DNA of 63,943 nucleotides, the filler included, from Squatina squatina (Eukaryota): the NCBI GenBank assembly GCA_031763465.1. It is 4 parts of 4 records of this genome, joined end to end, with 100 filler letters (N's around TTAATTAATTAA, not from the genome) between each part and the next. Parts side by side here need not be neighbours in the genome. Positions count along the whole stretch, not along the records: positions 46,431 to 63,943 come from JARFOE010000121.1; 3 more parts are not named here. One strand, written 5' to 3'. A program made the position numbers and the translations under genes. Each line of letters opens with the position of its first letter. Positions within the stretch are counted from its first letter, which is position 1. Below, piece by piece: positions 3,250 to 57,408 of the stretch. Below the pieces are notes generated by a model. That model made no database searches, was not told where the DNA came from, and saw nothing but the letters and a program-made list of their open reading frames with translations.

Positions 3250-3390
3250 GAAATTTTCGCTCTTCCAGTATTGGATGTCGGACAAGCAGACAACACAGAG
3301 GCATTGGAGGGGTCAAGAGAGGTGGTGGTGAGGTAGAGCTGAGTGTTGTGAGTGTACATGAGGAATCTGGCATTTTTTTGGATGATGTTG
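3250..3390 (-). mobile_element. Degenerate L2-like LINE RT fragment
   Basis: Minus-strand MYTHNTQLYLTTTSLDPS resembles a decayed YADDTQLY RT motif region. Confidence 0.55.
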
Positions 3391-3394
3391 CTGA

Positions 3395-4705: not shown

Positions 4706-4854
4706 ATCGAAGTAGTGAATACATTCAAGAGTGGCACTTCCTTTCAGGGGGCTCTAAGGCGGCAGTCATCCGTTACCAGCCAAAATCAAGATGTAACCAA
4801 TATTTCTAGCCCTACTCACGTATCGTTATCTACTCCCAATGCTCTTTCCTCTCC
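4706..4854 (+). CDS. ATP2B2: PMCA2 alternative splice-site-C exon (a-type), 3' end lost in gap
   Basis: ttgcag| IEVVNTFKSGTSFQGALRRQSSVTSQNQDVTNISSPTHVSLSTPNALSS matches the PMCA2a insert. Confidence 0.93.
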
Positions 4855-13888: not shown

Positions 13889-14060
13889 CAACTGGATCAA
13901 TGGATTCCTGTGTCATGATCTGGAATTTGAAACCACAGATGAGGGCCTATCGATTTGTAGGTCACAAAGATGCAGTCCTCTCAGTCCAGTTCTCGCCCTC
14001 TGGTCACTTAGTGGCTTCTGCGTCCCGAGATAAAACAGTCCGCCTCTGGGTTCCCAGTGT
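13889..14060 (+). CDS. POC1A: POC1 centriolar protein A, WD40 exon
   Basis: aacag|...|gtaagg, 172 bp; [29 protein letters not shown]...[13 protein letters not shown]; SMDSC fits POC1A rather than POC1B. Confidence 0.92.
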
Positions 14061-16933: not shown

Positions 16934-17099
16934 CAGTGTTAAAAGCTCACACAGGAACCATACGAAGTGTTCAGTTCTCTCGTGATGGCCAATCATTGGT
17001 TACAGCATCTGATGACAAAACCATCAAAGTTTGGACAGTTCATCGGCAGAAGTTTCTTTTTTCTCTGAGCCAGCACATAAATTGGGTTCGCTGTGCCAA
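16934..17099 (+). CDS. POC1A: POC1A WD40 exon (5' end in gap)
   Basis: [55 protein letters not shown]|gtaagt. Confidence 0.93.
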
Positions 17100-17444
17100 G
17101 TAAGTACTTAAATGGTAGTAATCAAACTGTTCTAGAGGGGAGGTGGGAAATGGTCAGGTTGGTATTCCACTACATGGTGCACATCTTTTGATGCGTAGGT
17201 TAGTTTTTGTGTGACTACTGACATTTTAACGTAGTTCTATAACGTTGAAACATGTATTTTAAAGCAATTTGACAGAAATTCTGTCCTCTGTACCAATGCT
17301 CCTAGTGAGGGTGGGGTGATCTGAGTTTTACTTCACTTCAGTAATACTCCCAATGATGATATACATTTTAATAATGTGGAAAGTTATCCTCCCTGTTTAG
17401 TTTCTTCTGTTTTTCTGCATGTTGCAAATTTCTTCTCTTCCCTT

Positions 17445-28596: not shown

Positions 28597-29325
28597 TCAT
28601 AGAATAGTGCAGTCTGCACCTGCTCTTTCAAAGAGCAATCCAGTTAGTCCCACTCCCCGGCTCTTTCCCAATATCCCTACAATATTTTCTTCTTCAAGTA
28701 TTTATCCAAATCCCTTTTGAAGGCTATTATTGAATCTGTTTCCACCACCCTATCGGGCAATGCATTCCAAATCCTAACCATTCATTGCATAAAAAAGTTA
28801 TTCCTCATGTCGCCTCTGGTTCTTTTGCCAATCACCTTAAATCTGTGCCCTTTGGTCCTCGATCCTTCAGCCATTGAAAACAGTTTCTCTTTATTTACTC
28901 TATCTAAATCCTTCATGATTTTATATACCTCTATTAAATCTCCTCTTGGCCTTCTGCACTCTAAGGAAGACAACCCCAGCTTCTCTAGTCTATCCACATA
29001 ACTGTGGACCATTCTAGTAAATCTGTTCGGTACCCTCTCCAAAGCCTTCATGCCCTTCTTAAAGTGTGGTGCCAGAATTGGACAGAATAATCCAGTTGGG
29101 ACCGAGCTAGTGATTCATGTAAATTTAGCATAGCTTTTGTATTCTATGCCTTTATTTATAAAGCCCAGCATCCCATATACTTTATTAACTGCTTTGTTAA
29201 CCTGTCCTGCCACCTTCAAAGATTTGTGCACTAGCACTCCCAGGTCTCTCTGTTGCACCCCCATTAAAGTTGTACCATTTAGTGTGTATGGTCTCGCATT
29301 CTCCCGAGCAAGATGTATCACCTCT
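28597..29325 (-). mobile_element. CR1 LINE 3' portion
   Basis: ALERVPNRFTRMV...RLEKLGLSSLECRRPRGDLIEVYKIMK and RDLGVLVHKSLKVAGQV. Confidence 0.92.
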
Positions 29326-29481
29326 TTGTAGGATGCTTACTGGGGAACAGTGGGATACATATAGGATATGCACATCTACATGATTCTGGGAGCACTGGGT
29401 TATGTACAAGGATAGTCACTGGGGGAAAAGTGGGCTATAGGAAGATAAGAAAGTCTGGAGCAAATTTGATCCATTAAGATA

Positions 29482-36402: not shown

Positions 36403-38379
36403 GTGAGTAACACCGCAGAGCTCGTTGCGTCTCCGTGTGTGTGCTGTCACATTTCATTGCAGGCAACGCCACATTAATACGCTGAATCAGCAAATACTAT
36501 TTTTATACATTGACAGATAAGGACACTAACACCTAATTTATGCATCCAGAGACTTGTATCTATATATAATGGATAAGCTTAAATAAGGTAAGGTTAATTA
36601 GCAACTTCCAGCAGAACTGCTAGCTATTACTTAGCGCTTTGGAAAGCATATGTAGCGTCGTGTATCTTGTTAGACAGCTCCTATTTCAACTTGACAGAAT
36701 GAATAGAAATTGTTCCTAGACTATGGATAAATATAATTATCTTATAAGTGCATAAGTCATGGCATTGGGAGGACGAAGAGCCGGTAAGACCGAGCTGTGA
36801 TTCAGTTGCAGTTCACTTTCAGTACAATACTAATAAATGTTGTGACCGGTAAAGATGAGCGGTACAGTATCCAGTGCGTCTGCTAAGGACTGTAATCCAA
36901 CTGAAATATTTATTTTTCTGCAAGACACGTTTATTAAGCCGAAATATGTAAAGCGGATACCAAGTTTTAAAACTTGACTTCCGTACGAAGTTGTTATAAA
37001 ATTATTTTGTGGAGATGTGAGTCAGCACGCTCTTAAAAAAACTAAGCAAAATACATAATATATTCTGTATATATCAGTTATTAGATGTTTTAATTGTAGG
37101 GTTACATACATTACCGGCATAAGAGCGAACGCTGCTGATTAATACTTGAACGCCACTTTTAAAGATTTATGATGTGCAAATTGATATCTGGTGAAAAGAA
37201 CACATCGTTCTGCAAAATGTTAACAACAAAGTGAAATTAAAGAACATGTCTGGGGTCCGTTCCTGATACCGCACCTTGGACTGCGAGCAAATCGAGTCCT
37301 CATTTAAACTAGTGCTTGGGTCTGGATGATATGAGAATGTAACATAAATCTTTCAAAGGAACCTGGAGTTACAGTTTGGTTCTTGTAAGAAGGTGCTAAG
37401 AGAACTTGGGCTTGTGTGTGTGCACGACTACTTACTTGACTCCTTAAGGACCGAAAGATTTTTCTTCAAAGATATATACAATATTAATCAAAGACTCGGT
37501 CTGAAAGTGGGGAACAGCAACTGTTCGGACCGACATACTGATACAGAGCTCATTGTGAATGATGCCTGTATTCGTGGAACAGTCACTCGCTGATTATAGT
37601 CTGCTTTCCACACCTGGCCCTTAAAACTACTTTCAAGCAAATAATTCGTGAAATCCACGTGCATATACGTCAAACAGTAAAAAAACGAGGAAAATTGAAA
37701 TTTNNNNNNNNNNNNNNNNNNNNNNNNNNNNNNNNNNNNNNNNNNNNNNNNNNNNNNNNNNNNNNNNNNNNNNNNNNNNNNNNNNNNNNNNNNNNNNNNN
37801 NNNGGAGGAGTACTGATTCATCAGCTGAGGGAGGGCGGTAGGTGGTAATCAACAGGACGTCTCCTTGCCTACGCTTGACCTGATGCCATGAGAATTTATA
37901 CAGAATAAGTTTACAACTTCACTGAGAATATCAAAGAGAGAAATCTTCAGCCCTGATCATCTCCCACCAATCCCGAGCAAGTATCCTCCATTATGAATCT
38001 ACCATTCATAGTTGGATTGTAAATCTGCATGTGTTGTGAAACGTCACCTGAGGGCCACCTGCACAAGACACTGCAAAAATAAAAAATGCTCTTGCATTAC
38101 AGCTTTCCCACCTGCCCCGTCTGAGTATGCAACCAATTTACAACGAAGTTGTAACTTCATTCTGATAGTTAGAACAAATACTCCAATATCCATTATCTTG
38201 ATTGCAGAACGTGACACACAAGAATTTTAAAATCTGTATTAGCGCACCTACTCTTCTAAAATAAACCAGGCTTCAACAGTATGAATCTTTCAAAAGAGAT
38301 GCCAATTTAGTAGTAAAAGTAGGTGCGATGTAATGTACATTTTTTTTCTTTCCAGCTGATTGAAGTCCAAAGACTCGAC

Positions 38380-39534
38380 ATGGCAGAAAGTAAAGCCACT
38401 AGTGTGCTGAGCTGGGATCAAGTGAGCAGTCTAAATGATGTCCTTACTGAGGTGGTCCTTATTCACGGCCGTGGAAATTTTCCAACATTAGAGGTCAGAC
38501 TGAAAGATGTGATTAAGACTGTAAGGACCAGGCTCTTTGAACGTGGAATTCTAGTACGGGATATCCGTCTGAATGGGTCAGCAGCCAGCCATGTCCTTGT
38601 AAAGGATAATGGCTTAAACTACAAAGATTTGGACTTAATTTTTGGGNNNNNNNNNNNNNNNNNNNNNNNNNNNNNNNNNNNNNNNNNNNNNNNNNNNNNN
38701 NNNNNNNNNNNNNNNNNNNNNNNNNNNNNNNNNNNNNNNNNNNNNNNNNNNNNNNNNNNNNNNNNNNNNNNNNNNNNNNNNNNNNNNNNNNNNNNNNNNN
38801 NNNNNNNNNNNNNNNNNNNNNNNNNNNNNNNNNNNNNNNNNNNNNNNNNNNNNNNNNNNNNNNNNNNNNNNNNNNNNNNNNNNNNNNNNNNNNNNNNNNN
38901 NNNNNNNNNNNNNNNNNNNNNNNNNNNNNNNNNNNNNNNNNNNNNNNNNNNNNNNNNNNNNNNNNNNNNNNNNNNNNNNNNNNNNNNNNNNNNNNNNNNN
39001 NNNNNNNNNNNNNNNNNNNNNNNNNNNNNNNNNNNNNNNNNNNNNNNNNNNNNNNNNNNNNNNNNNNNNNNNNNNNNNNNNNNNNNNNNNNNCAAGTACT
39101 GCAACCTGCTGGTCCGGGGCTTCAGGGCGGCCTCCGAGAGCGAGATGAAAGCCCTGCAGAGGTACATGTGCTCCAGGTTCTTCATTGACTTCTCCGACAT
39201 CGGCGAGCAGCAGCGGAAGCTGGAGTCCTACCTGCAGAACCACTTCATGGGGCTGGAGGACCGTAAGTACGACTACCTGATGACCCTGCAGAGGGTGGTG
39301 AACGAGAGCACCGTCTGCCTGATGGGACACGAGAGGCGACAGACCTTGAACCTCATCACCATGCTGGCCCTCCGTGTCCTGGCCGAGCAGAACATCATCC
39401 CCAATGTCACCAATGTCACTTGCTATTACCAGCCTGCTCCATATGTCAGTGATGCAAATTTTAGCAACTACTATGTAGCGCACAATGCCACCTCATACCA
39501 ACAATCGTATCCTACCTGGCTTCCCTGCAACTAA
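38380..39534 (+). CDS. TENT5C: Terminal nucleotidyltransferase 5C (FAM46C); single coding exon with an internal gap
   Basis: Acceptor ttccag at 38355, ATG at 38380; [34 protein letters not shown]...[16 protein letters not shown]; C-terminus YPTWLPCN*. Confidence 0.88.
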
Positions 39535-40440
39535 TAAGTAATGCTATGTTCACAGTTGACTAGTGTGCAAATTGACGTAGCTCAGCTCACCTTTAATGGC
39601 TTCTTCATTCACATTAGCTGAGAAGGGAGCACACCCTATGGCTGTTGTACAAGTTGCATGTATTAAACTGCAATCCGAATACAAGGATAATATGCACACA
39701 TTAATTTTTGCTATAGGGAAGATCCAAAAAAAGAAATGGCACTATGTTGGGTGGAGCACAAATTTAGGAAGGGAGACTCAACACCAGCAAGAGTCCTGAT
39801 AGTACACTGTGTCATTAGCGTTCTGGAAATGTAACTTTCACTTTCTATAAAGGCAATCCAAAATGGATATCTATCTTCCTTGCACTGTGTACTAGTAATT
39901 AATTTGTTAATTTTTAGAGCAAAAATGCAAATGAGCAGTTCACAATAGTTCAGCACTAAAGAGAAACAAACTGGTCTAATGGTGACAATTACCAAACTAG
40001 ATGTAGGCATTGCACAATGGTGAGCAGTGGTTCCTCAATAACCTTTTTTTTTGAATGCTAGACCACAAACCTAGAAATTTGTAGTTTATAGCTCACCTTT
40101 CAGGCAAATGTTAAGTGGTTCTTGTAGTGGCTCATGGGGAGGGTGGGTTGGAAGAGAAAAGAGAATTGGTGTGCTGGTGGTATAAAGCTGCAAAGCTCCA
40201 GTGCAAACCAAATTGTATAGACAGGCAGGTGATTATTTCGATTGGCTCATTATTTATATCTTACCAGGATGGGCCATTGGTATACTAAGGAATGAGTAAT
40301 GAAAATTTCAACTTCCTGAATAAATGATTAAATTACTTGACAATAATTGAAAAGTTTGAGGGTAAATAAAATGAAGAAAGTTCTTTGTTGCAAAAAAAAA
40401 CATTTGCTGAACTTTGCAGCTGCCGTAGTGCGAGACTAAT

Positions 40441-40868
40441 CTAGCGAGGTGTTTTCCAAGAAGTCAGCCTTACCCAGTAGCTTAGTATCTGTTTTGCGTT
40501 TCTTTCAAACTCTACGTTGAACTCGATCATGTTATGATTGCTATTGGGTAAATGTTCATGCACAGTTAGGCTGTTAACTATTAGGCTGTTAACTAAATCT
40601 GGCTCATTATTCATTACTAAATCTAATATGGCTTGCCCCCTTGTTGCCTTCAGCACATAGAAAACTATCCTGGAAGCATTCAAGAGATTCACTCCCTTTC
40701 TGACAGGTGCTTTTTTGCTTGTCCCAATCTCTATGGAAGTTAAAATCCCCCATGAAAACAATGCTGTCTTTACTACATGCTTGTCTAATTTCTGTATTTA
40801 TACAATCGAACACTTCAAAGCTGCTATACACAACTCCCACTACAGTCTTAAATCCTTTCCTATTTCTT
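40441..40868 (-). mobile_element. CR1 LINE endonuclease-region fragment
   Basis: MGDFNFHRDW and ATRGQAILDLVMNNEPDLV...SNHNMIEF motifs. Confidence 0.82.
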
Positions 40869-43800
40869 NNNNNNNNNNNNNNNNNNNNNNNNNNNNNNNN
40901 NNNNNNNNNNNNNNNNNNNNNNNNNNNNNNNNNNNNNNNNNNNNNNNNNNNNNNNNNNNNNNNNNNNNTTTGATGCAGTGAGGTTGCAGAATTTTCCTCT
41001 AATTGATAGATGAAGTGATATCAATTCCCGATGTTAGTGTCCAAACACTCAACAACTTTGTATGATATTCATTTTGTCTACTATTTTAATGCAGGCATTG
41101 ATCCATATTTTAAATAAGTTAACACTTCAGTTAAAAGGCAGACAAAAGAAGGCCGTACAAATGTGTTAAGCACTGGTCAACTAACAGTTATTTCTAGGCT
41201 ATAATTACATTTTCTCAGCTGATTGCACTGTGAGAGTAGCTGTGACAACAGTTCAATAATTAGTTGTAAATGATGCAAGCAGTGTCACCACAGATGAAGA
41301 GTGTGATGCTAACATAAATATGGAAAAACAAATGCAGTCAAATTTTGTGTGAAATGTCTTTGAAAGGTGCTGAATATAGAAACTCAGGGCCTTGAGTAGA
41401 TGATAAACAAAGATTCAAAGTAACAGCTGTCCTGTGGGCTGGTGCTCAGGGCTGTCCAGCATCCCAATTTAAACAAAGACAGTATCAGTTTCAAAAATGC
41501 ATTTAGACTTATGCAAATATATTGCGCCACAAACTGGATGATTAACTTTTAGGTTACCTTTGCAGCCTTCAGTATAAATAATATTAGCAAAAACAATTTT
41601 TCATGCATTTTTAATTGTCAATACAGCACTGATATATATACTTAGTAAATCTATATATCGTTAAAGCATAAACATACATACATAGTACATAAAGTTTACA
41701 TAATTTTGCAAATAACTCAGCAAACACAGTGACATGTTAAATTCACAAGAATAATTAAACTTTAGCTCTGTAAAATTCACACTTATGGTGGCTACAATGC
41801 AGTTATAGAAACTGGAGAACTCAGATTCTTCTACAACACTGGCTTCAATTTTTCTGTGTGAGGAATCCCCGAAAATATTAACAGACACCACAGGAACCTT
41901 TGTTCTAACTTCCAGACACAGAGTGNNNNNNNNNNNNNNNNNNNNNNNNNNNNNNNNNNNNNNNNNNNNNNNNNNNNNNNNNNNNNNNNNNNNNNNNNNN
42001 NNNNNNNNNNNNNNNNNNNNNNNNNTGGCAAGACGAGTTCTTGTACTCTAGGTGACCTCCTGAGATCACACACAGGGTTTTCATCAATTTAAAGCATAAC
42101 ACATTCAGCTGATGGAACAAAATCTCTGAACTGCAAACATTGCTGCCAAAAATTAACAGCAATCTCAAGATTTTTACCATCTGGGGATCTGGTTTTATTT
42201 ATATGGCCAACAGTTGTCCAAAGTCTATGGCAGAAACACAATAATGTGATTATGATACCTTCAATACATTATGGAGATTGATGTCTTACTCGAAAAAAGT
42301 AGCATCCGTCTGCAAACATGAATCCCAGAGACACAAAGATATGAAATTCAAGTCATGACTGGTTTCTTTCTCAGTAAACCAACAGTTTTGTGTTGTGTAT
42401 CCATATATTTCAAACGTACCATTATCCTTTCAAAGTTTCTCATGTTTAAAATAAATACAGAACACCTTTGAAGTAAGAACTTAATGAAAAGCCACCCTTT
42501 AACAGACTATGGGTGCAGCTGGCCACATAAGAGTACGATGACCAACATGCATTTTCTTCAAAATTAACAACGTGGCTTACGTAAAATATGTCTCTTTCAC
42601 AAACATATGCGATAGAAATAAGATTAAACAGGCTTGGCAAAAATAAGCGGATCTTTAGGCTTTGAGTACGTGTAATGCCATTCTGTGATTTCCTTTCCAA
42701 TAAGCTACTTGAGCTGCGTCCAGTATCTGTAACATATTGGCCCTGAAATTGCGATTGGAGGCTTCCTGCGTGCGGCTGCCTCCAAACACAAAAAAGTTAC
42801 GTACTTACCTAAAGGTCCTNNNNNNNNNNNNNNNNNNNNNNNNNNNNNNNNNNNNNNNNNNNNNNNNNNNNNNNNNNNNNNNNNNNNNNNNNNNNNNNNN
42901 NNNNNNNNNNNNNNNNNNNATACACTGACATCCAAGATAAACACACGCAACACTTTACTAAAACCATGCTTCTCCTGGGTGGCTACACCTGCCTTTCACT
43001 CACCAGTTCTCGTGCTTCTTCTAGGCGCAACCTGAGGAACAGTATTATGGGATGTGGTTGGCTGCTCACGCTCTACAAAACCGCATGGTACTGAGGTGGT
43101 CCTCCTCTCATGTCAGCTTGCTCCTAGAATCATGATCATGTGCCATAAGTGTAGCTGAAGGTCCATGGAAAACCTGGAGAAACAATGCCTATGTCTTTTC
43201 TCTGGAGGTTCCATAGAAGATCTTCTGCCAAAGTCACAGCTGGCAATCGGGGAGGACCTCGGCGGAAATTTAACCCCCACAAGCGACAGTCCAGATCCCA
43301 GCAACACCATTAGATACTTGCTAGCTTGTATATGCTTTTGTATAGGGTAAACTATGTAACACAACCTGTAAATAAATAAAATCTGAATGTATCCAATTAT
43401 AACCATTGAAAGCTCTGAGAAACTCTAGCTGATACTCTAATTGCTTAGAGCCTGTGTAGTGATCATGATGAAATAGGACTGCCCTCCATCAAATTAGAAA
43501 ATGTACATGAAAGTTGACTAGCATTACAAAGCTTAAAACTGTATTTTTCAAAAATCCGATCCGCTTATAATTTTGTGGTATTGAGAATCCTCAGATTCCT
43601 AAGATTGCTGATCTGTTTCCTATGTATAACATTGACACTATAGAGTGGGGTGGATTACTTAACCTCAGAAGGCTTCTGTGAAATAAAGGGCTATTCTGAT
43701 ATGGTCATTAGTTTCTGCCATGAACACATATGCTGTCATACAGCAATGCGAAAAATATAACCAATCTAAATAAATTCTGCTAGAATACATAAATATTTGA

Positions 43801-44443
43801 TTACAGAATGCACACTATTCTCTTTTCACATGAAAGTAAACTGTTTCATGTGGGCTGAAAATTGAAACCACTTGAGATTTTAGGCAACATGCCCGTCATT
43901 GAGGTTAATTTATAATCTATTTCAGAACATTTTGTGACTGCATTAATCTGGATTTAATTCAGTTCTTCTCCCNNNNNNNNNNNNNNNNNNNNNNNNNNNN
44001 NNNNNNNNNNNNNNNNNNNNNNNNNNNNNNNNNNNNNNNNNNNNNNNNNNNNNNNNNNNNNNNNNNNNNNNNAAGCCAGTCCGATCCTGTCCTTGCTTAG
44101 CATCCACACACAAGCACCTTCAAGCGGGTTGTCACTGAGTGGTGATCAGGAGCTGTCTTGTCCGCTCCGTATCCCATGGGACACTAAGACCATTTGTTGC
44201 CTCACAGATGTCCCGCCTAGTTGAGATCAGCACAGACCAGGGATCAAGTCACGAACCTTCCTGGGTTGTATGGCTCAGCAGAGCTAAATGAATACATGAC
44301 TTTTTTCTAAAAATTGGATAGTAAGATCCCTTCTGTTTTTCCTCATGTTCCATCACTCTTTGAATGCTCAGTGTAATAATGGAATGTTTGGGATGATTTC
44401 TGCAAAGAAGATGTATTAGAAAGGCTGGCTGTANNNNNNNNNN

Positions 44444-44688
44444 CCTCCATAGATACGGGGGTGGTGCCAGAAGACTGGAGAATTGCAAATATTACACCAT
44501 TGTTCAAAAAATGGTGTAAAGATAAACCCGACAACTGCAGGCCAGTCAGTTTAACCTCGGTAGTGAAACAGTAATCAGGGACAAAACTTGGATAGCGTGG
44601 ATTAATTAAGGCAAGCCAGCACGGATTTTGATAAAGGCAAATCGTGTTTAACAACTTGATCGCGGTTTTTGATGAGGTAACAGAAGAA
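44444..44688 (+). mobile_element. CR1 LINE RT fragment
   Basis: VVPEDWRIANITPLFKK...NCRPVSLTSV; SCL.NLIAVFDEVT. Confidence 0.85.
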
Positions 44689-44842
44689 NNNNNNNNNNNN
44701 NNNNNNNNNNNNNNNNNNNNNNNNNNNNNNNNNNNNNNNNNNNNNNNNNNNNNNNNNNNNNNNNNNNNNNNNNNNNNNNNNNNNNNNNTTCCATCAAACT
44801 CAAGTTGTCCAATTCTGAAAGAGCAAAAATGAAACATAATTT

Positions 44843-45197
44843 GTACTGAGGGAGTGCTGCACTGCCGGAGGTCCTGTCCTTTGAATGTGATGTTCATCTG
44901 AGGCCCTGTCTGCTCTCTCAGGTGGTTGTAAAGGATCTCATGACACGATTTCAAAGTAGAGCAGGGGAGTTATCTCTGGTGTCCTGGCCAATATTTATTC
45001 CTCCACCAACATCACAAAAAAAAAAATTATCTGGTCACTGTCACATTGCTGTGTGTGGGAGCTTGCTGTGCACAAATTGGCTGCCACATTTCCTACATTA
45101 CAACAGTGACTACACTTCAAAAGTACTTCATTGGCTGTAAATCGCTTTGGGACATCCGGTGGTCGTGAAAGATGCTATATAAATGTAAGTCTTTCTT
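44843..45197 (+). mobile_element. Deu-domain SINE copy
   Basis: Collinear with 6945-7300. Confidence 0.82.
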
Positions 45198-46330
45198 TGT
45201 TTTTTTCTTTCACAAACCCGGAGATCCCTCCACATTATTATTCTTGTTGCAGTACACCACAAGGCTTTGGGAGCAGGGCAGTTAAATGTGAATTTTCTCA
45301 GGGTCATATCTGGGCAAATCCACCCATCTTGGGGCTGGAGTTAGGGTTACAATCTAATGTAAATTCTTCAGCCCTGGGTTCCCATCCAGCAAGGCTCCAT
45401 GCTGGGTGCAGCGGCCTACTGAATATACCCAATTTAGTACAATTGTTGAAGCCGGGTTGACAGCTGGCTCTGATCACAGATCATAATGTGCTAATTAAAT
45501 CCTTTGCCATTAAATATGAAACACCGTGAGAAGTAAGTTATTCAAGAAATCAGATCGGGCAAAATGCCACAAGTCTCTTCAAACAATCAATCAGCACATG
45601 CATTGAGAAAGAAAGCAATAAGCCGAAGATGATTTCTTTGGAGGCAATTAATATCAAAAACCAGTCTTTTAAGTTGTACCACATTTAGAATTTGCATCTA
45701 TTTATCATAGACCTGTCTATAGGCCTCTCATTGCATGCACATGCTACTTAAGCGCTTCACTTCAAAGCCATGCTCTCATGCAGCCAATGAAGCTTCCTAA
45801 CTCAAACCAATTTTCATGAATCCTAGACTAGACCAACCTGTCTGATGGTGGAAAGGATATATTCTCCTCATATATATCTCCTTCTAACCCCAGACTGCTC
45901 CAGCTACTGCTGTTGCCATTACTGCCAGAAAGGAAAAGAAAGGCAGTGGACATTGAGTAACTGACCATATTTTCTCATTCCCTTCCCATCACCATTGTTT
46001 GGTCAAACTACACACATACAGCAATTCTAGAACACAGAGATGGTGCATTTCCTGTTGCTGACCCTGTACCCACATGCAATTCACCAGGTTTCTTCTGCAT
46101 CAAACAGTCAAAAAACAAATACTTGCAACATCTTTTCCGAACAGACTGGTATCTTTGGCTATTTTTGACATCCAAGGGCCAAAATGGCGAGGCTTCACTG
46201 CCGGTGTGTAGCCTCACTCAGAGCGAGGGCTGGAGGTCGGGTGGGAGCACGCTGGCTCTGATTCACCATTTGCATTCACCAGCAGCTGAGCCTCCTGAAT
46301 CCTGTGTTCTGGTGCCAGGGCACGAAATTT

Positions 46331-46430
46331 NNNNNNNNNNNNNNNNNNNNNNNNNNNNNNNNNNNNNNNNNNNNTTAATTAATTAANNNNNNNNNNNNNN
46401 NNNNNNNNNNNNNNNNNNNNNNNNNNNNNN
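46331..46430. other. Artificial concatenation linker
   Basis: TTAATTAATTAA at 46375-46386 inside Ns. Confidence 0.95.
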
Positions 46431-46862
46431 TATTGAATGGCGGTGCAGGCTCGAAGGGCCTAATGGCCTACTCCTGCACCTATTTTCTATGTTTCTATGT
46501 TTCCATGATTGTCATTAAAAACCCATCTGGTTCAATAAAGTCCTTTAGGGAAGGAAATCTGCTGTTCTAACATGGTCTGGCCTATATGTGACTCCGGGAC
46601 CCACAGCAATTACCTGCCCTCTGAAGTGGCGGCTCGAAACCACCTTCTCAAGGTCAATCAGGGATGGGCAATAAATGTCGGCCAGCAATACCCACAACCA
46701 TAAAAAAAAATTAGGATAAACATAGTTTTCTCATTTGTAATTAACTGCTTACTTTTATGCATTGTTGCATTTTCTAGTGAATATACTTATCATTAATAGC
46801 TACAGTTGAGTTTTACAGCTCAGTACTGACGATGATTTTTGTACTGCCCATTCCTTCCATAG

Positions 46863-47025
46863 GACTACTCCACAGAAAGGCTAAAGACTACCAATGAGAT
46901 CTTGAAGGGCATCAAACTTTTGAAGCTTTATGCCTGGGAGCACATTTTCTGCAACAATGTGGAAAAAACTAGAATGCAGGAGTTAACCAGTCTGAAGAGC
47001 TTTGCACTTTACACATCCTTATCCA
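46863..47025 (+). CDS. ABCC9: Sulfonylurea receptor 2 exon (TMD1); not in ORF track
   Basis: ccatag|...|gtatgt, 163 bp; [54 protein letters not shown]. Confidence 0.93.
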
Positions 47026-48219
47026 GTATGTATTGACCAGAACTAGTGTGTTGCCTTAGAGATAATGAACGTACCGCCTACATTTTCGGAAAATAAAGCT
47101 TGTAGAGGCGGAATTTCCTCTTTCCCGCAATGTTGATGAATCTTCGGGAGGTCGGGATTTTCACTGAGCATGGTCCCACCATGGTTTCCCAGGTCCGTAA
47201 TTTGGATATGGGCGTAGGATCCAGTGACATCACTGCCCATTGCCTTCACTAGGTTAACGTTATTGCGTTAAAGGTGCTATATTATCGCAAGTTGTTGTTA
47301 CCTGCATTGTATGGAGGGAGGGGGAAATTGAAGTCATCAGTTGCTCTCGGCGAATTAGCCCCTTTAAAATTTAATCCCCCCAAACCCTTGTGTCACATAG
47401 TAACACTNNNNNNNNNNNNNNNNNNNNNNNNNNNNNNNNNNNNNNNNNNNNNNNNNNNNNNNNNNNNNNNNNNNNNNNNNNNNNNNNNNNNNNNNNNNNN
47501 NNNNNNNTCATGGATAGCAAGGGGCTTATTCACAAGGATATTCTGGAGGGAGATGCAGGCAGGGGGGATGATTATTGAACCGCAGGCAGAGTCCACGGGA
47601 TCAGCGGTGGAAGGGGAGGGAGATGAGCAAGATTAGCCCCCAAAAGCCGCGCTGCATGGGGAGGTTGGCGAGAGAGTGGGATGGGGTCATTGGGATTGTT
47701 GCTCGTAAGGAGATAGCGATGAGTGTCTCGATGGGCCCTTTGGAGAAAGAGACACAGAGGGAAGCTGTGTCTTCTCCAAGAGGGAGTCAAGTCCTTTGGA
47801 AGTAGGAAAGTAGGAAAGTACCGGACTAGTGAAGGGTTGTAATAGGGCTTTGGGTGTTGGGGGGAAGCACCAGAGAGAGGAGAAATCAAAACAGGCCTGA
47901 CTGGGTAACAGGAAGGGGAGGAAAGGCCCAAGAGGGGCAAAGAAAAGAGATCTAAAAAAGGAGGTAGAACTAATGGGCTTGAATATGGAACAGCTCACGC
48001 GAATGGACACAGTAAAACTCAGGTTTCGTGGGCATGGCAAAGATAAGGATAGATCTGTCCTGGTTGTACATGGAGAACAGGCAGGAAACAATAAGCGAGA
48101 GCACAAAGTTAAAGTCAGAGGTCCTATGGTGAGATGAAGTTCACTTAAAAAAGTGAACTAAATTAGCCTTGAGTCGGTATAATTGTATTAAAATGTTCCT
48201 TTTTTTATTTACAATACAG

Positions 48220-48330
48220 CACACTAAGGCCTTCAACAGGAGACAACCCCTAAAGGGCCAGTTGGAAGGTTATGAACAGCCACTGAGGAGGTACATTCGG
48301 TCCAGGGAGACAGAAGATGTGTCAGTCAAG
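48220..48330 (+). CDS. ABCC9: SUR2 exon preceding NBD1 (the exon alternatively skipped in mammals)
   Basis: atacag|, 111 bp, phase 0/0; HTKAFNRRQPLKGQLEGYEQPLRRYIRSRETEDVSVK resembles human ...YEQSTRRLRPAETEDIAIK. Confidence 0.78.
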
Positions 48331-48834
48331 GTCACTAACTTGTAATTGTTTCCTACTGTACAGCTGTGGTTCTCATGCGACTATTCCCTGTCTTTCTGTG
48401 CACACGAGAACAAAAGGGAAAGAGCAATCCATACTGTGGCTCGCGAAGTATAAACGAGGAGGAGCTAGCCTTTCCCACACTCAGGGCAGAAGTCAGATTA
48501 TGTAAGAGTATTCATTTCCTGCTTTTAATCACTGCAGTAAAATTATAATTCAAACAAAGACAAACATTTTCATTGGATATTCACTCGCTATTATCTTAAA
48601 AGGCACCAAGATAAAAGTGCTCACGTCCGATCAAATGCTCCCGATTAGGAAGCCGTAATTTTCCATTTTCAGTCCCGACTACTTACGCCATCTGCGTTTA
48701 TCCCTGACATCTGCCTGTATCGGGCAAATGGAGCNNNNNNNNNNNNNNNNNNNNNNNNNNNNNNNNNNNNNNNNNNNNNNNNNNNNNNNNNNNNNNNNNN
48801 NNNNNNNNNNNNNNNNNNNNNNNNNNNNNNNNNN

Positions 48835-49052
48835 AAGAAGATAACATGTCAACAGTAATGAGGCTTAGAACAAAAATGCCTTGGAGAGCTTTCTGGAGAT
48901 ATCTGACCTCAGGAGGGTTCCTTCTGCTATTTTTGCTGATCATCTCCAAGTTGCTAAAACATTCTGTCATGGTGGCCATTGACTATTGGTTGGCAAAGTG
49001 GACAACTGAGAGCCAAATACCGACACACAACAACTTCACAATGACTGACAAG
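48835..49052 (+). CDS. ABCC9: SUR2 exon (start of TMD2), 5' end in gap
   Basis: [56 protein letters not shown]...|gtagga. Confidence 0.93.
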
Positions 49053-49534
49053 GTAGGAAACTGACTGAATATCTGGAAATCTTTCCCCCAAAAAGCTGTG
49101 TTGAGGCTGCGTCAATTGAAAATTTATCAACTGAGATTGATAGATTTCTGTTAGGTAAGGGTGTTAATGGACATGGAACCATGGCGGGTGAATGGAGTTG
49201 AGATACAAATCAGCCATGATCTAATTGAAAGGCAGAACAGGCTCAAGGACACCTGATCCGAATAATAAAGTATGGTAAGTATGACTCAATCAGTGCACTT
49301 TACATGGGGAATTAGGAGGGTGGGCTCGACATAAATAGCCATGAGCCGAAATTAGCATTCACCCCAAATGAAAATATTAACGATAACTACTTGTTGCACT
49401 AAGGGGATTAAGGGATATGGGATCAGGATGAAAANNNNNNNNNNNNNNNNNNNNNNNNNNNNNNNNNNNNNNNNNNNNNNNNNNNNNNNNNNNNNNNNNN
49501 NNNNNNNNNNNNNNNNNNNNNNNNNNNNNNNNNN

Positions 49535-49775
49535 CTCCAAGTTCCCCTCCAAGTCACACACCATCCTGACTTGGAAATATATCGGCCGGTCCTTCATCGT
49601 TGCTGGGTCAAAATCCTGGAACTCCCTCCCTAACAGCGCCATGGGAGCACCTTCACCACACAGACTGCAGGGGTTCAAAGAAGGTGGCTCACCACCAGCT
49701 TCTCAGGGGCAATTAGGGATGGGCGATAAATGCTGGCCTTGTTAGTGACTCTGATATCCAGAGAATGAATTAAAA
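49535..49775 (+). mobile_element. LINE 3' end; its tail is shared with 46600-46700 and 51262-51430
   Basis: KSWNSLP motif and a caccacc..ctcaagggcaa.taggg atgggc.ataaatg tail repeated three times. Confidence 0.7.
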
Positions 49776-50006
49776 AATACTTTTAATATTATAAAATATT
49801 AAGATTTTTCAAGATAAAGAGTTGCAGGGCGAGTTGCCGTGATACACGGGATGCTTTTGGTGGCTTTGGTTTATGCAGCCACAATTAACCTGCATCTTCT
49901 GGACTGCACTCTGCTTTATGATCGGCCTAGTCAGTTCATCATTCGATGTACAAACCCATTCTGCCCCCACCCCTGCCATTACTCACTCTGCTGTTTCTCC
50001 TTCCAG

Positions 50007-50144
50007 CATCGTGTGACTTCCATTCTGGATGCAGACCTAGTGTTAGTCTTTTGCGAGGGTATTTTAGTGGAGTGTGGTGCTTCCTCAAAATTGCTCTCCC
50101 AGGAGGAGAGCATCTTTGCCTCTCTGGTGAAGTTCAACAAGTAG
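50007..50144 (+). CDS. ABCC9: SUR2A-type terminal exon
   Basis: ttccag| HRVTSILDADLVLVFCEGILVECGASSKLLSQEESIFASLVKFNK*; F.EGILVEC and ..NK* are SUR2A-like, not SUR2B (MKRGNIL...RADM). Confidence 0.9.
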   Translation, partial: HRVTSILDADLVLVFCEGILVECGASSKLLSQEESIFASLVKFNK

Positions 50145-50736
50145 AGGAGTCCAGTGCACTCTATTGGCACAGAGTCCAGCTCTTGGGTTGGTAGACTTGA
50201 TGGTTATTGGCAACGGCCATGGCAGCTTTAATCGTGTTTGTTTTTTCTGCTGGAGTCTTCATGCAAACACGCAAGCTTACTGTGCCTCGAGTACAAAAGT
50301 TGATGTGCTGGCGTTGTGTGGCTTCTGTACTTTGAGATCTGTGCGATTTGGTAGTTCAAGATCTAGGTTAATGCCTTGTAAAAAAAAATGTGCTTTTACC
50401 AACACTGTGCATAATTGGAAATCAACTTATTTCATTGTGTGAGATTTTTGTCAAAAGTAACAAAAAATCTGCAACCATTTCATAATGTGCTAATGTTCTG
50501 TTATAATATATATTTTGTTAAGAATTGAAAGAGAAATAATATTTTTGTAACTAAAGTCTGGCTGCTAGCTTATTTACTTCAACAATCCAAAAATTAATCA
50601 AACTTTGCTAAGAAGGCTGGAACTCCCTCACATCATCCCTATATAGCGAGTCCTGATTTCAGACTGTTATCCATATAGCGAGATGCAGATTCAACAAACT
50701 GGAGTTAAACAACAACAACTTGCATTTATACAAGAG

Positions 50737-51161
50737 CATAAGAAATAGGAGCAAGAGTAGACCATTCGGCCCCTCAAGCCTGCTCCGCCATTCAATAAGA
50801 TGGCGTTGAGGCAGCCATAATCTTGTTGAACAGCGGAGCAGGCTCGAGAAGCCGAATGGCCTACTCCTGCTCCTAGTTTTTATGTCCTTATGTAAGATCA
50901 TGGCTGATCTCCTACCTCAACTCCACTTTCCTGCATGATGCCCATATCCTTTGATTACCTTAATATCCAAAAATCCATCGATTTCTGTCTTGAATGTACT
51001 CAATGACTGAGCATCCACAGCCCTCTGGGGTAGAGAATTCCAAGGATTCACCACCAAATGCCTCCTCATCTCAGTCCTAAATTGCTGACCTCTTATTCTA
51101 AGTCTGTGAACCCTGGTTCGAGACTCCTCAGCCAGAGGAAACATCCTCCCTGCATCTACCC
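50737..51161 (-). mobile_element. CR1 3' end with a nested inverted CR1 tail
   Basis: Minus-strand FPLAEESRTRVHRLRIRG...WNSLPQRAVDA; inverted arm at 50802-50892. Confidence 0.85.
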
Positions 51162-51436
51162 NNNNNNNNNNNNNNNNNNNNNNNNNNNNNNNNNNNNNNN
51201 NNNNNNNNNNNNNNNNNNNNNNNNNNNNNNNNNNNNNNNNNNNNNNNNNNNNNNNNNNNNNTGTGGTTGACTCTTAGCTGCCCTCTGAATTGGCCCAGCA
51301 AGCCACTCAGTTATAAACAACCACAACTGCAGCAGTTCAAGAAAGCAGCTCATCACCACTTTCTCAAGGGCAACTAGGAATGAGCAATAACTGCTGGCTT
51401 TGCCAGCATTGCCACATCTCAGAAATGAATAAAACA

Positions 51437-51688
51437 AGTGATGTTGGTTGAGGATGAATGTTGGCCTGGAGAAAACTCTTTTTTTCAAAATAGTTGGGAT
51501 TTTTTACATCCACTTGACAGGGCATCAGTTTTAACGTCTCGTCCACAAGACGGCACCTCCGACGTTGCAGCACTCCCTCAGTAGTGCACTGGAGTGCCAA
51601 CCTAAATGTTTTACCTGAGTTTTTGGAGTGTGACTTGAACCCACAACATTTTTGACTTCACGGTAAGAGTGCCACCAAGGCTGACACC
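51437..51688 (-). mobile_element. Deu-domain SINE copy (inverted)
   Basis: gcagcactccctcagta and acttgaacccacaac are reverse complements of the 6850-7100 SINE. Confidence 0.75.
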
Positions 51689-51964
51689 AGCATATTAAAT
51701 CTTGTTGGACAAGAATGGGGCTGTGCTTTTAACAGGAATGGGGCTGGGATTTTCCCCTTCAGCACACCAGGAGGACACATTGGGGAAATTCCACACCCTC
51801 CTCCCTTGCTCATAGTTTTCTACTCAACTAATTGTGTTTCCACTCTAAAGAGGAATGGCCTATTAGAACTGTGCGGATTGTGGTTGAATTGCTTTATTGA
51901 GTCATGCCATTGTGTTGCATTTGCTCCAATTGTAAACAGTTTGAAATTCGAAGCACTCCTATAG

Positions 51965-52234
<270 letters not shown>

Positions 52235-53060
52235 TGAGTTTAACCTAACCGTCCAGGCAGAAATCGGGCGGGTGGGCAGTTGAAACCAAGCAGGTTAGTT
52301 ACCCGCTTGGAACTCATGCCCTCGCCAGCTGAGGGCTCTCTGCAGCCTCAGTCTTCCCTGCCTCCCCCCCCCCACCCCATGCGTGTCCCTCTTGTGAGAC
52401 CCTCCCAGTGTCCCCTCCCCACAAGTTGCTTGCTGGTGAGTTGTCCTTTCGGTGCCAGCAGGCCTCTTCACACATCCTCTACAACCCACCATCCACCTGC
52501 CCGTTTCGGGCGGGCAGTTGACCAAAGGAGTCATGTCTGGGGGTTAAACCCTCCCCGCTCCGGCCTCAAAATTTAGGCCAACAAGTACATTTTGCACTTG
52601 CCCTGCCCAGTCCACCCAAAACCCGCTTGGGGTTAAAATTGACCGTGTGGCTTTAATGCCATTTAATATGATTATTATATGAATTTAATTTTTATGGAGC
52701 TTAAGAGTCAATTTGTCAATGCTGTAAAACAGTTTGTTTGCTGTTGAGCTTTGTTTGGTGCAAGACATGGCTCTTTAATGAGTAGTTCCTTATTGTTAAC
52801 TATGTATCTTCATTTACTGACCAAACACTTCAGATGTTTGAGTTGGAGGCAACATGTGATATACAAACTACCATTTCCATGAAGCTATTAACTCAAAGGG
52901 AAGTGTATCGGTGAATGTGACGTACAAAATGTACTATTATACTTTTAACGCGTGACACAGAATTATCTGCCACATGCTGCAATTAAGTGGCACTTTGCCA
53001 GTGGATCTCTGGAGCGACATCACAAGAACTGTCTACATTCAGCTGCTTTACATTTTGCAG

Positions 53061-53121
53061 TTCCCATTTGGAGTGGTGTCAATGTAGCAGGAGTTGGACT
53101 GCAGCAGCTGAACCCTGATAT
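53061..53121 (+). CDS. LDHB: LDHB next exon (3' end in gap)
   Basis: ttgcag| PIWSGVNVAGVGLQQLNPDI. Confidence 0.9.
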
Positions 53122-53292
53122 NNNNNNNNNNNNNNNNNNNNNNNNNNNNNNNNNNNNNNNNNNNNNNNNNNNNNNNNNNNNNNNNNNNNNNNNNNNNNNN
53201 NNNNNNNNNNNNNNNNNNNNNTTGCTGTTGACATTAGAGTTCCTTCAATACGCACGCCTATTAAAATTGCGAATTGATCCAATTCCACTACC

Positions 53293-53298
53293 TTTATT
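53293..53298 (-). terminator. Candidate polyadenylation signal of KISS2
   Basis: AATAAA on the minus strand about 220 nt after the kiss2 stop. Confidence 0.55.
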
Positions 53299-53516
53299 TT
53301 GTGTGTAGAGAGCGTTTACTTGCTTCACATGATATTATACATGTCATACAAAAACGATGCAATTCTGCTGAATTTATCATGGGAACAGAACAGATAACAG
53401 CGAGTCACTGTTGGTCTCCATGTGTGCTGTAGTCTTACACCGCGTTAAATCGAACCGCAAGTACACTGAACATTTCAACAAGCCTCTAATACAAAATCTA
53501 GCGCGGAACAACGCGT

Positions 53517-53833
53517 TCAGCAGCCGCTTTGAGAATTCTGGCACCTCGGGATCTTGTGTTTCCAAAGGTAAGGCAGCTTGTTCCCGTTCACGATCAGAGT
53601 CTTCCAGTTGATCGAGCCGGCGTCGTCTCTCTTCCCGAAGCGCAGTCCAAACGGGTTGAAGTTAAATTTACTCCTGGTGAAGCGGAGTTTGCAGGAAATC
53701 TGACTCTCCAGGTCGCTCTCCTGCATGAAGTAGCACATGCTCGACTGCTCCGATGAGTTCTGGGCATCTAAATTCCGAGCCAAGACATGGGAGTTCCGGG
53801 GGAATTGAGACTCGCGGGCCGGGTACATTGAAT
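53517..53833 (-). CDS. KISS2: Kisspeptin-2 precursor, coding exon 2 (contains FNFNPFGLRF-G-KR at 53666-53628)
   Basis: cctcag| acceptor, phase 1; ...SMCYFMQESDLESQISCKLRFTRSKFNFNPFGLRFGKRDD...; lies between LDHB and GYS2. Confidence 0.96.
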
Positions 53834-55034
53834 CTGAGGCCAGGATTTAAAATATATCAGTACAATAAAACACTCCTGAATTCAAAGAGCCATTATACAT
53901 TGCACTTGCATCCAGGGCTAATTCTATATAATCCCAAAGTTGCTAGGTGACAGGCAAATAATTGCAACTACACCCCTTCACATTCGCACTGATGTATTAG
54001 AATACGAAATGTTAATACCAGAATTAAAATTAAGCTGTAGAGAAACGAAGCCAGGGTAGTTAGATTATGAAGAACCCACTGTTGAAGTACAGTTTTTCGC
54101 CCAATTAAATATTTTTAAATTCGAAATCCAAGTCGAGTCAATAAACAATAATGTTCCTGAGATGATATACTTCACTGTATTTTGCTCCTGGGCCAAAAAA
54201 GTCGAGTCAGCGAATCAACATTTGCTTCAGACCGGTATTAACAAGGATTTCAAATGGGGATATAGGAACAGGAGGAGGCCATTCAGCCCCTCGAGCCTGC
54301 TACACCATTCAATTAGATCATGACTGATCTGTACCTCAACTCCATCTACATGCCTTTGCTTTGGCTCCGTATCCCTGGAGACCCTTACCCAAAAAAAATC
54401 TATGGATCTCAGTCTTCAATTGACCCACCATCCCCAGACTTGGGGGGCGGGGGCAAGTTCCACATTTCTACTGCCCTTTGTGTGAAAAAGCCATTCATGA
54501 TTTCACTCCTGAATTGTCAGGCTCTCGTTTTAAGATTGTGCCTGTTGTCTGGATTCTGGAAGTCGCGTATATGTACTTACCCTATCGAATCATTGTTTCA
54601 TTAACACAATCGATTGAATAGGACTCTGATACCGTTTTCACCACAGGCAGAGGATGTTACAGTAACCATTCGGAACTGTTCCAACGCCAACGTTAGGGTT
54701 TGCAAAAAAACAGACACTGTAACACCATTACATGAAACAATAGCCCGTCTATACTCCACACTTACTAACCGGCGTATTACTAAATCGTCCTCGCCCAGTA
54801 ACCAGGCTTTTTTGGACTGTAAATATATCTTCAGACAGGCATTGAAGATTCAAGAATGTGTTATGTAGCTACATTCTATGACACGTGTGAATGTTGAACT
54901 CTCTTGGCGGTACGAAATAACTGTGCAAATCACAGTGCTAAGATATTACAATGCGCTATTGGATTACATTTTCCCCCCGCACTCACCCTTTATAATTTGT
55001 CAACCTTGATGTAAAAACAGGTTGCAGCACTTAC

Positions 55035-55128
55035 CCAGGGAGACCAATTTCTCACTGGAGACCGGTTTCCCCAAGAATCCATTCTGGTAATTTACTATAA
55101 CAACCACGAACAGCAGCAGCCTGGTCAT
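55035..55128 (-). CDS. KISS2: Kisspeptin-2 precursor, coding exon 1 (signal peptide); not in ORF track
   Basis: ctgcag|atacgtgacATG; MTRLLLFVVVIVNYQNGFLGKPVSSEKLVSL g|gtaagt; 94 nt, phase 1 matches exon 2, giving a 136-aa precursor. Confidence 0.9.
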
Positions 55129-55419
55129 GTCACGTATCTGCAGAGAGAGGATAAGGCACACTGAGATCTTCCCTGCTCACCAGGCAGCTGATTTCCCTAA
55201 CTCGTTGGCATTTCTAGATTGATGACAGAACACATAAAGGTAAGCTTCTCCCAATATTGAAGTGCTTCAACTAACTGATTCGTGCGACGCATTCCCTGGT
55301 TAATTGCGCTCCACATTCTAATTTGAAGATGAAGCCCATTTTAAGAGCTTCGTGTTTGGGAATAATTAGCAGTCTTCCCAAACTGTCCAACTATGGAACG
55401 AATCTATAGTTTCTCTTAC

Positions 55420-55600
55420 CTGCATCATAGCACCGACTGTTTATTAGAAGAGAGCAATGCCAGGCTCCAAGCGAAATGGAAAATAGTCCCCACACATCTA
55501 AGGAGAGGCGGACTCAGGCAGTGTGAGCGCTGTCCCCTTGAGAGAGGTGCTGAACGGGAGTTCCACACCATCAGGAGTACTCGGAGATAGTCCATCCCAG
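55420..55600 (-). other. Candidate 5' non-coding exon of KISS2
   Basis: Minus-strand donor gatgcag|gtaaga at 55420/55419 upstream of the acceptor at 55138; 5' boundary approximate. Confidence 0.5.
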
Positions 55601-56000
55601 TCACCGAGCTCAGGTCTAAAGACAAGACTGCTGTTTTGTTCCCTCTCTGTTCGGAGACTCGGTTGTGTTATCTCCCACCTTCTGGTGTGCATTTGTTTAA
55701 ATTTTACTCGCGATTTTTTTTTGAAAGCCTGAACGCGAGATTTTAAATTCTAACGTTTGTTAAGAACACTTAAAAGTGACCTTTTTTTTGCTTTGCTGGA
55801 CCCATGTGTTTTGGGAATATTATTTACATATTACAGAATGCCATCTATTGAACGGCAGGTAAACTAGATGAAGTAACAGGTATTGTCATTGAAGNNNNNN
55901 NNNNNNNNNNNNNNNNNNNNNNNNNNNNNNNNNNNNNNNNNNNNNNNNNNNNNNNNNNNNNNNNNNNNNNNNNNNNNNNNNNNNNNNNNNNNNNAAACAG

Positions 56001-56145
56001 TTCAATGTTGATAAGGAAGCGGGGGAAAGGCAGATATACCACCGCTATTGCATGGAGCGAGCCAGTACGCACTGCGCGCACGTGTTTACGACTGTCTCCG
56101 CCATCACCGCTGTCGAAGCAGAGCACATGATAAAGAGAAAACCAG
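56001..56145 (+). CDS. GYS2: Liver glycogen synthase exon; not in ORF track
   Basis: aaacag| [48 protein letters not shown] g|gcaagg, 145 bp, GC donor. Confidence 0.93.
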
Positions 56146-57329
56146 GCAAGGTTTGCATTGGCCTAAGCAAATGGCTCCGCTAGCTGTGCGTCTCAATAAA
56201 CCGACCCAGTTTCAATGATTGCTGCTGTTCATCCTGCCGCTATGGAATAAGCGGCCATCATTCACCTAACACAATCAGCTTAAAACTATAGTTTTTGTAT
56301 TCGTACTAGTCTGTTATTGTTTTACAGTTTACTAAAAGCAAAGTAGGTTACTTCTGAAATTCCTGCAAAATTTAAGAACCAACAGGAAATGTATACGTGA
56401 GTTGAGAAACACCCCCAACAGATCTTGATTTAAGGAGGTGGGGGGCGGGGGAGTGGAAGTCTGATGTACCTGCTGATTGGAGTAAATCTGTGCCCATAGG
56501 AACACCAGAAGAGAATTCCATCAACTCCAAGTACATCAGTTGCGAACCAGCGAGAAATGTTACTCCTTGAATTTCCCCTCCTCACACTAATAGATTTTCT
56601 ACCTTCACTCAGCTCCATTTCCCAAACATCAGCCGTACAGCGAGTGCTATAAGATCAGTCCTGGAATCATCAACTCTGATTGGGCACATTCCTGGAGGTT
56701 ACAACACATGACCTCCCACCATCTGCCNNNNNNNNNNNNNNNNNNNNNNNNNNNNNNNNNNNNNNNNNNNNNNNNNNNNNNNNNNNNNNNNNNNNNNNNN
56801 NNNNNNNNNNNNNNNNNNNNNNNNNNNATTATCCATAGTCTGTGATCGACAGTACATTTTAAAACTCGGGAGTGCTTTAGATGAAATTGCCCTTTTGGAC
56901 ATGTAGTACAAATGAGCAGAGTAAAGCTGGGGCACGTTGTATTGAACCATTTTACATTACAGAAACTGGCTATCTAATTTTACTTGAAGTCTGTGCTATT
57001 GTCAGACTTGCACAAGCTTCTGTTATGTAGGGGAAAACAGGGATTTGATCATGTTAACAGATAGATACTTGTACCCACCTAGAAGTGCCCTTTTAAGTGA
57101 TTTATTTGCTCTAAAGATTCTGTTCTGCAGTAAGGTTCTGTGAAACTTGTAAAAGGATATGGCCCACTACTAAGAGGTGCTTTAATGGTTTGCAAAGAAA
57201 GCAGACTAAGCTCAAGGCATAAGCTTTGGTAGCTTTGTGCCAAGTTGCACCAACCACCTAAGAATTGATTTGACCTATTCCATTTCTTTCATGATTTAAT
57301 ACTCTCCCAATTATCCTGTATATTTGCAG

Positions 57330-57408
57330 AGGGGAAACTCCAGATATGAACAAGTTCCTTGATCGCGATGACTTGACCATAATGAAAAGAGCCATCTATG
57401 CAACTCAG
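57330..57408 (+). CDS. GYS2: Liver glycogen synthase exon; not in ORF track
   Basis: ttgcag|...|gtatac, 79 bp; [26 protein letters not shown]. Confidence 0.9.

Follow-up and report, generated by a model that had tools for sequence, protein, structure and literature searches.

An intact kiss2 orthologue in the shark Squatina squatina, with a conserved cysteine pair near its predicted kisspeptin

The genome of the shark Squatina squatina (assembly GCA_031763465.1) contains a locus that, judged from its sequence, is an intact and ordinary shark orthologue of vertebrate kiss2, apart from a conserved cysteine pair near the peptide. It is located in a stretch of 63,943 nucleotides, fillers included, that was analyzed as a whole and is referred to here as the window. 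We consider it very probable that this intact kiss2 orthologue encodes a 136-residue precursor, whose predicted fate is secretion and cleavage to the amidated dodecapeptide SKFNFNPFGLRF-NH2, which would likely activate a kisspeptin receptor. The exon–intron structure, the open frame, and the peptide motif are read directly in the DNA, and orthology is supported by sequence and by neighboring genes. Beyond the original prediction, which was made from the DNA alone, the analysis adds a likely upstream exon and a conserved Cys65–Cys79 pair as a candidate disulfide loop.

The gene consists of two minus-strand coding exons with a combined length divisible by three. Exon A (55035–55128), 94 nt counted from the ATG, encodes residues 1–31, including a signal-peptide-like N-terminus; exon B (53517–53833), 317 nt including the stop, encodes the pro-region, the cysteine pair, the 12-residue kisspeptin (Kp-12), the amidation and cleavage site, and a C-terminal tail. 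The intervening phase-1 intron (53834–55034, minus strand; 1201 nt, no N) opens with GTAAGT and has a pyrimidine tract followed by CAG at its 3′ end, in agreement with the GT-AG rule. Splicing 55128–55035 to 53833–53517 reproduced the canonical two-exon structure and the 136-residue frame of the original prediction, and translation of the joined exons proceeds to the stop without an internal stop or frameshift. Interpretation of the locus as a pseudogene was rejected, as the frame is open and the splice sites are canonical. The entire gene is contained within one gap-free piece of 2.7 kb (53222–55894), in which a candidate polyadenylation signal, AATAAA (53293–53298, minus strand), lies approximately 220 nt past the stop; no other AATAAA or ATTAAA occurs before the following gap.

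The hydrophobic N-terminus and the peptide motif of the original prediction are likewise present. The most hydrophobic nine-residue window spans residues 4–12 (Kyte–Doolittle score 3.94, versus 0.80 for the best window elsewhere), and nine homologues likewise have a hydrophobic core. Residues 85–100 form the motif R/SKFNFNPFGLRF/G-KR, in which the predicted mature peptide, Kp2(12), corresponds to residues 86–97 (53637–53672, minus strand), with the putative processing sites Arg85 before it and Gly-Lys-Arg after it. The Kp-10 core, FNFNPFGLRF, is of the Kp2 type FN(F/Y)NPFGLRF, with Phe at position 3 and Pro at position 5; an Arg 13 residues ahead of the Phe that ends the core would give the 12-mer, and a Gly and a dibasic site follow the core. 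Scanning all six frames of the window for the pattern returned two matches, namely kiss2 and a plus-strand site at 33909 that lacks a dibasic site and was set aside as unrelated.

All 33 candidates from a protein search with exon B matched, and the top eight were chondrichthyan, led by "kisspeptin 2" of Heptranchias perlo (E 6.4e-60; 96 of 105 residues identical). Exon A is identical to the same protein at 26 of 31 residues (tblastn E 4e-12), and the match is thus not due to chance. Over the full frame, the Squatina and Heptranchias (XP_067860669.1) precursors have the same length of 136 residues and a common C-terminal cysteine pair, and are identical at 122 positions. Exon A carries five of the 14 substitutions in Squatina, among them the replacement of Cys14 by Tyr, and none fall within residues 49–100. 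The original prediction is thereby supported in its assignment to kiss2, and understated the distribution of the gene, which it described as reported in some chondrichthyans: 15 elasmobranch species have a protein named "kisspeptin 2" in public annotation, a count obtained through a cluster look-up of six exon B matches, plus Narcine from the exon B search itself. The same models overturn its claim that the signal exon is invisible to ORF-based annotation, since the signal region is present in 15 of 15 and is thus no obstacle.

In a tree of 32 Kiss2 sequences, the Squatina precursor nests with 16 chondrichthyan rows with support of 100/99. The tree combined the window sequence with these 16 rows and 15 bony vertebrates chosen from the matches, with a single named row for each species and no further isoforms; no Kiss1 or Kiss3 row was included. 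Both Arg85 and Gly98 are conserved in the other 31 precursors of the tree. Among 135 rows, FNFNPFGLRF is the commonest form of Kp-10 (66 rows), and RSK precedes Kp-10 in 119. The core and the following GKR are common to Squatina and to vertebrate Kiss2 from coelacanth, Xenopus, turtle, and bass, and the predicted 12-mer, SKFNFNPFGLRF, is identical letter for letter to bass Kiss2-12 (PMC8982144), in keeping with the predicted amidated dodecapeptide. Outside this region, similarity to bony-vertebrate Kiss2 precursors is low, at approximately 24% in the pro-region and 20% in the tail. According to PMC3530029, vertebrate Kiss2 has two coding exons with the signal in the first and resides in an ABCC9/LDHB/GYS2 region; the Squatina DNA shows the same layout, with a signal-peptide-like first exon and, at the scaffold level, these neighbors.

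Distinguishing Kiss2 from its paralogues rests on the decapeptide, because no Kiss1 or Kiss3 precursor was retrieved. Precursors of both types follow the same general plan as Squatina Kiss2, with an RF- or RY-amide decapeptide preceding Gly and a dibasic site (PMC3530029). None were found among the best 120 of 267 matches in a shared-word profile search, and in a full HMMER search with the Kiss2 profile, all 52 matches up to E 0.001 were Kiss2-like, again with neither a Kiss1 nor a Kiss3 precursor. Elephant shark is reported to have three Kiss genes, and the Kp-10 of Kiss1 and Kiss3 in coelacanth and elephant shark is given as YNWNTFGLRY, FNWNSFGLRF, or YNLNSFGLKF (PMC3530029). The Squatina decapeptide matches coelacanth Kp2(10) exactly but not the Kp1(10) and Kp3(10) in that paper, having neither the Trp or Leu at position 3 nor the Ser or Thr at position 5 of the Kiss1/Kiss3 type. 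In a language-model feature look-up, a Kisspeptin 2 cluster scored highest (0.91), with KiSS-1 in fourth place (0.88); on the scale of that tool the preference is weak, and recognition fell below threshold. Pfam assigned no family to exon B and is uninformative for Kiss2, as four known Kiss2 precursors were also blank (five of five). A PDB profile search with Kiss2 gave no matches, and a PDB search with exon B gave no relative, the one hit being a chance antibody match (E 0.68).

The original prediction called the gene complete. This holds for the coding sequence reported above; however, an additional upstream exon probably exists. Nine nucleotides (55129–55137, minus strand), reading Ile-Arg-Asp in frame, separate the ATG of exon A from a splice acceptor composed of a pyrimidine tract and CAG (55140–55138). 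The 3′ end of the candidate exon (55420–55428, minus strand) reads ATG ATG CAG, in frame with exon A, and is followed by the donor GTAAGA; in-frame stops occur just upstream. The resulting candidate intron would be 282 nt in length with GT-AG ends. Gene models from Chiloscyllium, Scyliorhinus, and Cetorhinus have differing N-termini that converge just before x-Arg-Asp/Ala, supporting an acceptor near the ATG. Moreover, four of 16 chondrichthyan rows start with MQIRD, MQIRE, or MQVRD, as splicing from the GTAAGA donor would yield, and the N-terminus would resemble the MQIRD of Mobula Kiss2 (P0129). The ray N-termini could also stem from a local ATG, because unspliced reading across the acceptor gives Leu-Gln-Ile-Arg-Asp. 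On balance, these sequence features lead us to favor the existence of the exon, which as a third exon may add a few coding residues, whereas every Kiss coding sequence is placed on two exons in PMC3530029.

The neighboring genes are those of the published Kiss2 region, and all are on the plus strand. They comprise one exon of ABCC9 (SUR2), a further marker of the region (46863–47024; 89.7 bits for ABCC9 versus 69.3 for ABCC8); one LDH exon (~51986–52160), located with Pfam, whose best solved relative is LDHB by a narrow margin (115.5 bits versus 111.9 for LDHA); and two GYS2 exons on separate pieces (55998–56153 and 57322–57408), assigned through Pfam and identity to the liver-type synthase. 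The second GYS2 exon shares 83–90% identity with three shark proteins, of which two are named liver type, versus 69% with three muscle-type proteins. Pfam was applied to 132 stop-free frames of at least 28 residues on both strands from 55200 onward and, within 39700–53500, to 150 of 154 plus-strand frames; four short frames and the minus strand of that interval were left out. The order ABCC9, LDHB, kiss2, GYS2 fits the Kiss2 region described in PMC3530029 and PMC4015844. The predicted position between LDHB and GYS2 is thus upheld as an order of exons. However, both flanking genes lie on separate pieces reached only across 100-N gaps, and kiss2 synteny therefore holds at the scaffold level only.

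Distances within this scaffold carry no meaning. The window consists of 48 pieces with a median length of 1038 bases, and 28 of its 47 gaps are exactly 100 N. Only 81 of 703 GYS2 residues are present, and the first 226 would have to fit into the single 100-N gap before 55998; likewise, the LDH exons after residue 197 would have to sit within a 100-N gap. The gaps are thus unsized, and the apparent distances from kiss2 to LDHB and GYS2 were rejected as real, since gaps hide most of the flanking genes. The order of the pieces may have been taken from a reference. Large genes are represented here by one or a few exons each, and closely packed genes, absent exons, or short spacers between genes in the window are consequently artefacts of a compressed assembly. 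Support for the neighborhood comes from other sharks: Kiss2 (chiPu_0012202) and glycogen synthase (chiPu_0012203) of Chiloscyllium punctatum carry consecutive locus tags and are on contigs that are both 1,571,334 long, and in Carcharodon and Mustelus, Kiss2 and the liver synthase are on contigs equal in size.

Several further features were observed elsewhere in the window. A plus-strand frame at 38323–39531 encodes a nucleotidyltransferase of the TENT5/FAM46 family (Pfam NTP_transf_7; best solved match TENT5B, E 1.1e-61); it is broken by a run of 446 N, the size of which fits the absent part of the domain. At the scaffold level, this frame falls between ABCC9 and a set of WD40 exons (13822–17100, plus strand), themselves preceded by 3′ exons of a plasma-membrane calcium ATPase (2234–4855, plus strand; Pfam ATP_Ca_trans_C). 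The latter two are presumably POC1B and ATP2B1, respectively, which are neighbors in human. Broken frames at 28785–29336 (minus strand) and 3352–3727 (plus strand) resemble, by eye, remnants of a CR1-type LINE reverse transcriptase; Pfam gave no match to them at E 0.01.

The feature that stands out in the precursor is the Cys65–Cys79 pair, which delimits a 15-residue loop (53691–53735, minus strand, computed from residue numbers), predicted to form a β-hairpin; Cys79 lies six residues before Arg85. Two cysteines precede Kp-10 in 133 of 135 rows (the query and isoforms included), with 13 residues between them in 125 of those 133; one cysteine is missing in the bullfrog and smelt rows. Representatives clustered at 50% identity gave a similar picture: once two of 52 had been dropped for a variant core, 49 of the 50 anchored sequences retained two cysteines, 39 of them with the 13-residue spacing. 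Both sets of counts lean high, because the searches favor sequences in which the segment around the pair is retained. That segment, residues 63–85, shows mean identities of 94% with the 16 chondrichthyan and 66% with the 15 bony-vertebrate precursors, as opposed to 70% and 24% for residues 21–62 of the pro-region, and 66% and 20% for the tail. AlphaFold modeling with 121 sequences was poor overall (mean pLDDT 58, pTM 0.23), and its best part was a pair of strands at residues 32–37 and 43–48 of the modeled sequence (P0001), with block pLDDT values of 75 and 72. In this model, a tight hairpin of two strands would put Cys33 opposite Cys47 (P0001 numbering).

Short disulfide loops near processing sites aid the granule sorting of other prohormones, and four of the five loops assayed raised the granule localization of a reporter (PMC8807871). 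As in Kiss2, these CC loops, found in POMC, calcitonin, amylin, prorenin, and vasopressin, are short Cys–Cys loops near a processing site; the candidate Kiss2 loop, at 15 residues, is intermediate in size between those of POMC (13) and chromogranin B (22). The likeness is one of loop position and size, and the Kiss2 disulfide is a predicted one. Kisspeptin is absent from the loop table of that paper and from its main text. By analogy, Cys65–Cys79 would most likely form a disulfide loop that stays in the pro-region and assists the packing or processing of the precursor; granule sorting or processing would be the likeliest use of the pair. The literature searched, as represented by titles and the starts of abstracts, contained no description of the pair, which figures, supplementary alignments, or subscription-only isolation papers may mention; the word "cysteine" had no matches in the main texts of PMC5766898, PMC8982144, and PMC4015844. 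As a tentative proposal that we regard as possible but doubtful, Kiss2 precursors across a range that extends from sharks to reptiles and perch-like fish would contain an overlooked disulfide-closed β-hairpin directly before the kisspeptin, which would either direct granule sorting or processing or be released as a second peptide.

Neuropeptide maturation depends on prohormone convertases, carboxypeptidase E, and PAM. By comparison with the family, the hydrophobic N-terminus would take the Kiss2 precursor into the secretory pathway, where a prohormone convertase would cut after Lys-Arg (99–100) and after the single Arg85. A carboxypeptidase would then trim the basic residues, and PAM would convert Gly98 to the amide. 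The amidated 12-mer would act on KISS1R/GPR54-type receptors, raising calcium, and would modulate the GnRH/gonadotropin axis, with further roles in the brain perhaps as well. Peptides tested in other species behave accordingly: eel Kp2(12) activates rat KissR-1 with an EC50 of 134.7 nM and raises calcium through it (PMC5766898), and in vivo, bass Kiss2-12 changes the expression of LH and GnRH (PMC8982144). Zebrafish and medaka kiss and kissr knockouts breed normally (PMC8982144), and a key reproductive role of kiss2 therefore cannot be assumed. No functional study of a shark kisspeptin appeared in the literature searched, as judged by its listings; we infer the function of Squatina Kiss2 as a kisspeptin-receptor ligand from these relatives.

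The gene might be kiss2 and nevertheless yield a different main product in sharks, namely a longer peptide carrying the disulfide-closed hairpin on its RF-amide core, or the hairpin might be released as a second active peptide. The contrast in conservation between residues 63–85 (94% chondrichthyan, 66% bony) and the pro-region before them (70% and 24%) is in line with such a product, Arg85 is a single basic site, and a figure legend of PMC5766898 lists a predicted Kp2 of 51 residues for eel. However, the searches reward residues 63–85 and so inflate their conservation, Arg85 is invariant, as expected for a cleavage site in use, and the isolated Kiss2 peptides cited in PMC5766898 contain 12 residues in Xenopus and turtle and 13 in salmon. 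We thus regard a longer or additional peptide as unlikely, and the 12-mer as the preferred product.

A recent loss of function or expression, with the frame still open, is considerably less likely than that. Such losses have precedent: crocodilians and birds have a decayed Kiss2 (PMC4015844), as does human, where a Kiss2-like gene lacks the amidation signal (PMC5766898), and only Kiss1 is kept in eutherians (PMC3530029), in agreement with the loss or pseudogenization in placental mammals cited in the original prediction; on primate kiss2 pseudogenes, the literature searched yielded nothing. The Squatina gene also has one unusual change in its signal region. Codon 14 (55089–55087, minus strand) encodes Tyr, while Cys occupies this position in 13 of 16 chondrichthyan rows; Tyr14 may shift signal cleavage, but is probably tolerated, because two catsharks have Phe and four tetrapods have Tyr here. 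Against decay, the gene has no stop or frameshift, its splice sites are canonical, a candidate poly(A) signal is in place, and not one of the 14 differences from Heptranchias touches residues 49–100, which contain the cysteine pair and the peptide. Most improbable of all is that another paralogue (Kiss1, Kiss3, or the missing Kiss4) was put into the kiss2 region by scaffolding. The 48 short pieces of the window, the order of which may derive from a reference, and a tree without paralogue rows leave it a slight opening; yet identity to a named Kiss2 reaches 90% over the whole length, every one of the 52 profile matches up to E 0.001 is Kiss2-like, and Kp-10 has the Asn-Pro of Kp2 rather than the Asn-Ser/Thr of Kp1 and Kp3 (PMC3530029). 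An intact kiss2 orthologue is thus the reading we retain.

A second pair of cysteines (129 and 136) closes the precursor (53541–53517, minus strand). Heptranchias, most rays, chimaera, coelacanth, Polypterus, sturgeon, and tetrapods retain this terminal pair; the rows compared from galeomorph sharks and teleosts lack it. Unlike Squatina Kiss2, the galeomorph models (Carcharodon, Cetorhinus, Scyliorhinus, Mustelus, Chiloscyllium, and Hemiscyllium) stop before it, and its presence in Squatina would fit a squalomorph shark. Its absence from both groups suggests separate losses of the tail in galeomorph sharks and in teleosts.

For specialists, Squatina squatina extends, without surprise, by one species a gene with existing annotation in no fewer than 15 sharks and rays, and its predicted mature peptide is already known, being identical to one used in fish experiments. 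A practical use is that the existing synthetic peptide could be tried on shark receptors. The cysteine pair is a different matter: if the proposal is true, a conserved disulfide loop would explain the constraint on the Kiss2 pro-region and would provide a new case for the disulfide-loop model of hormone sorting, in which event this lead would matter more than the gene itself.
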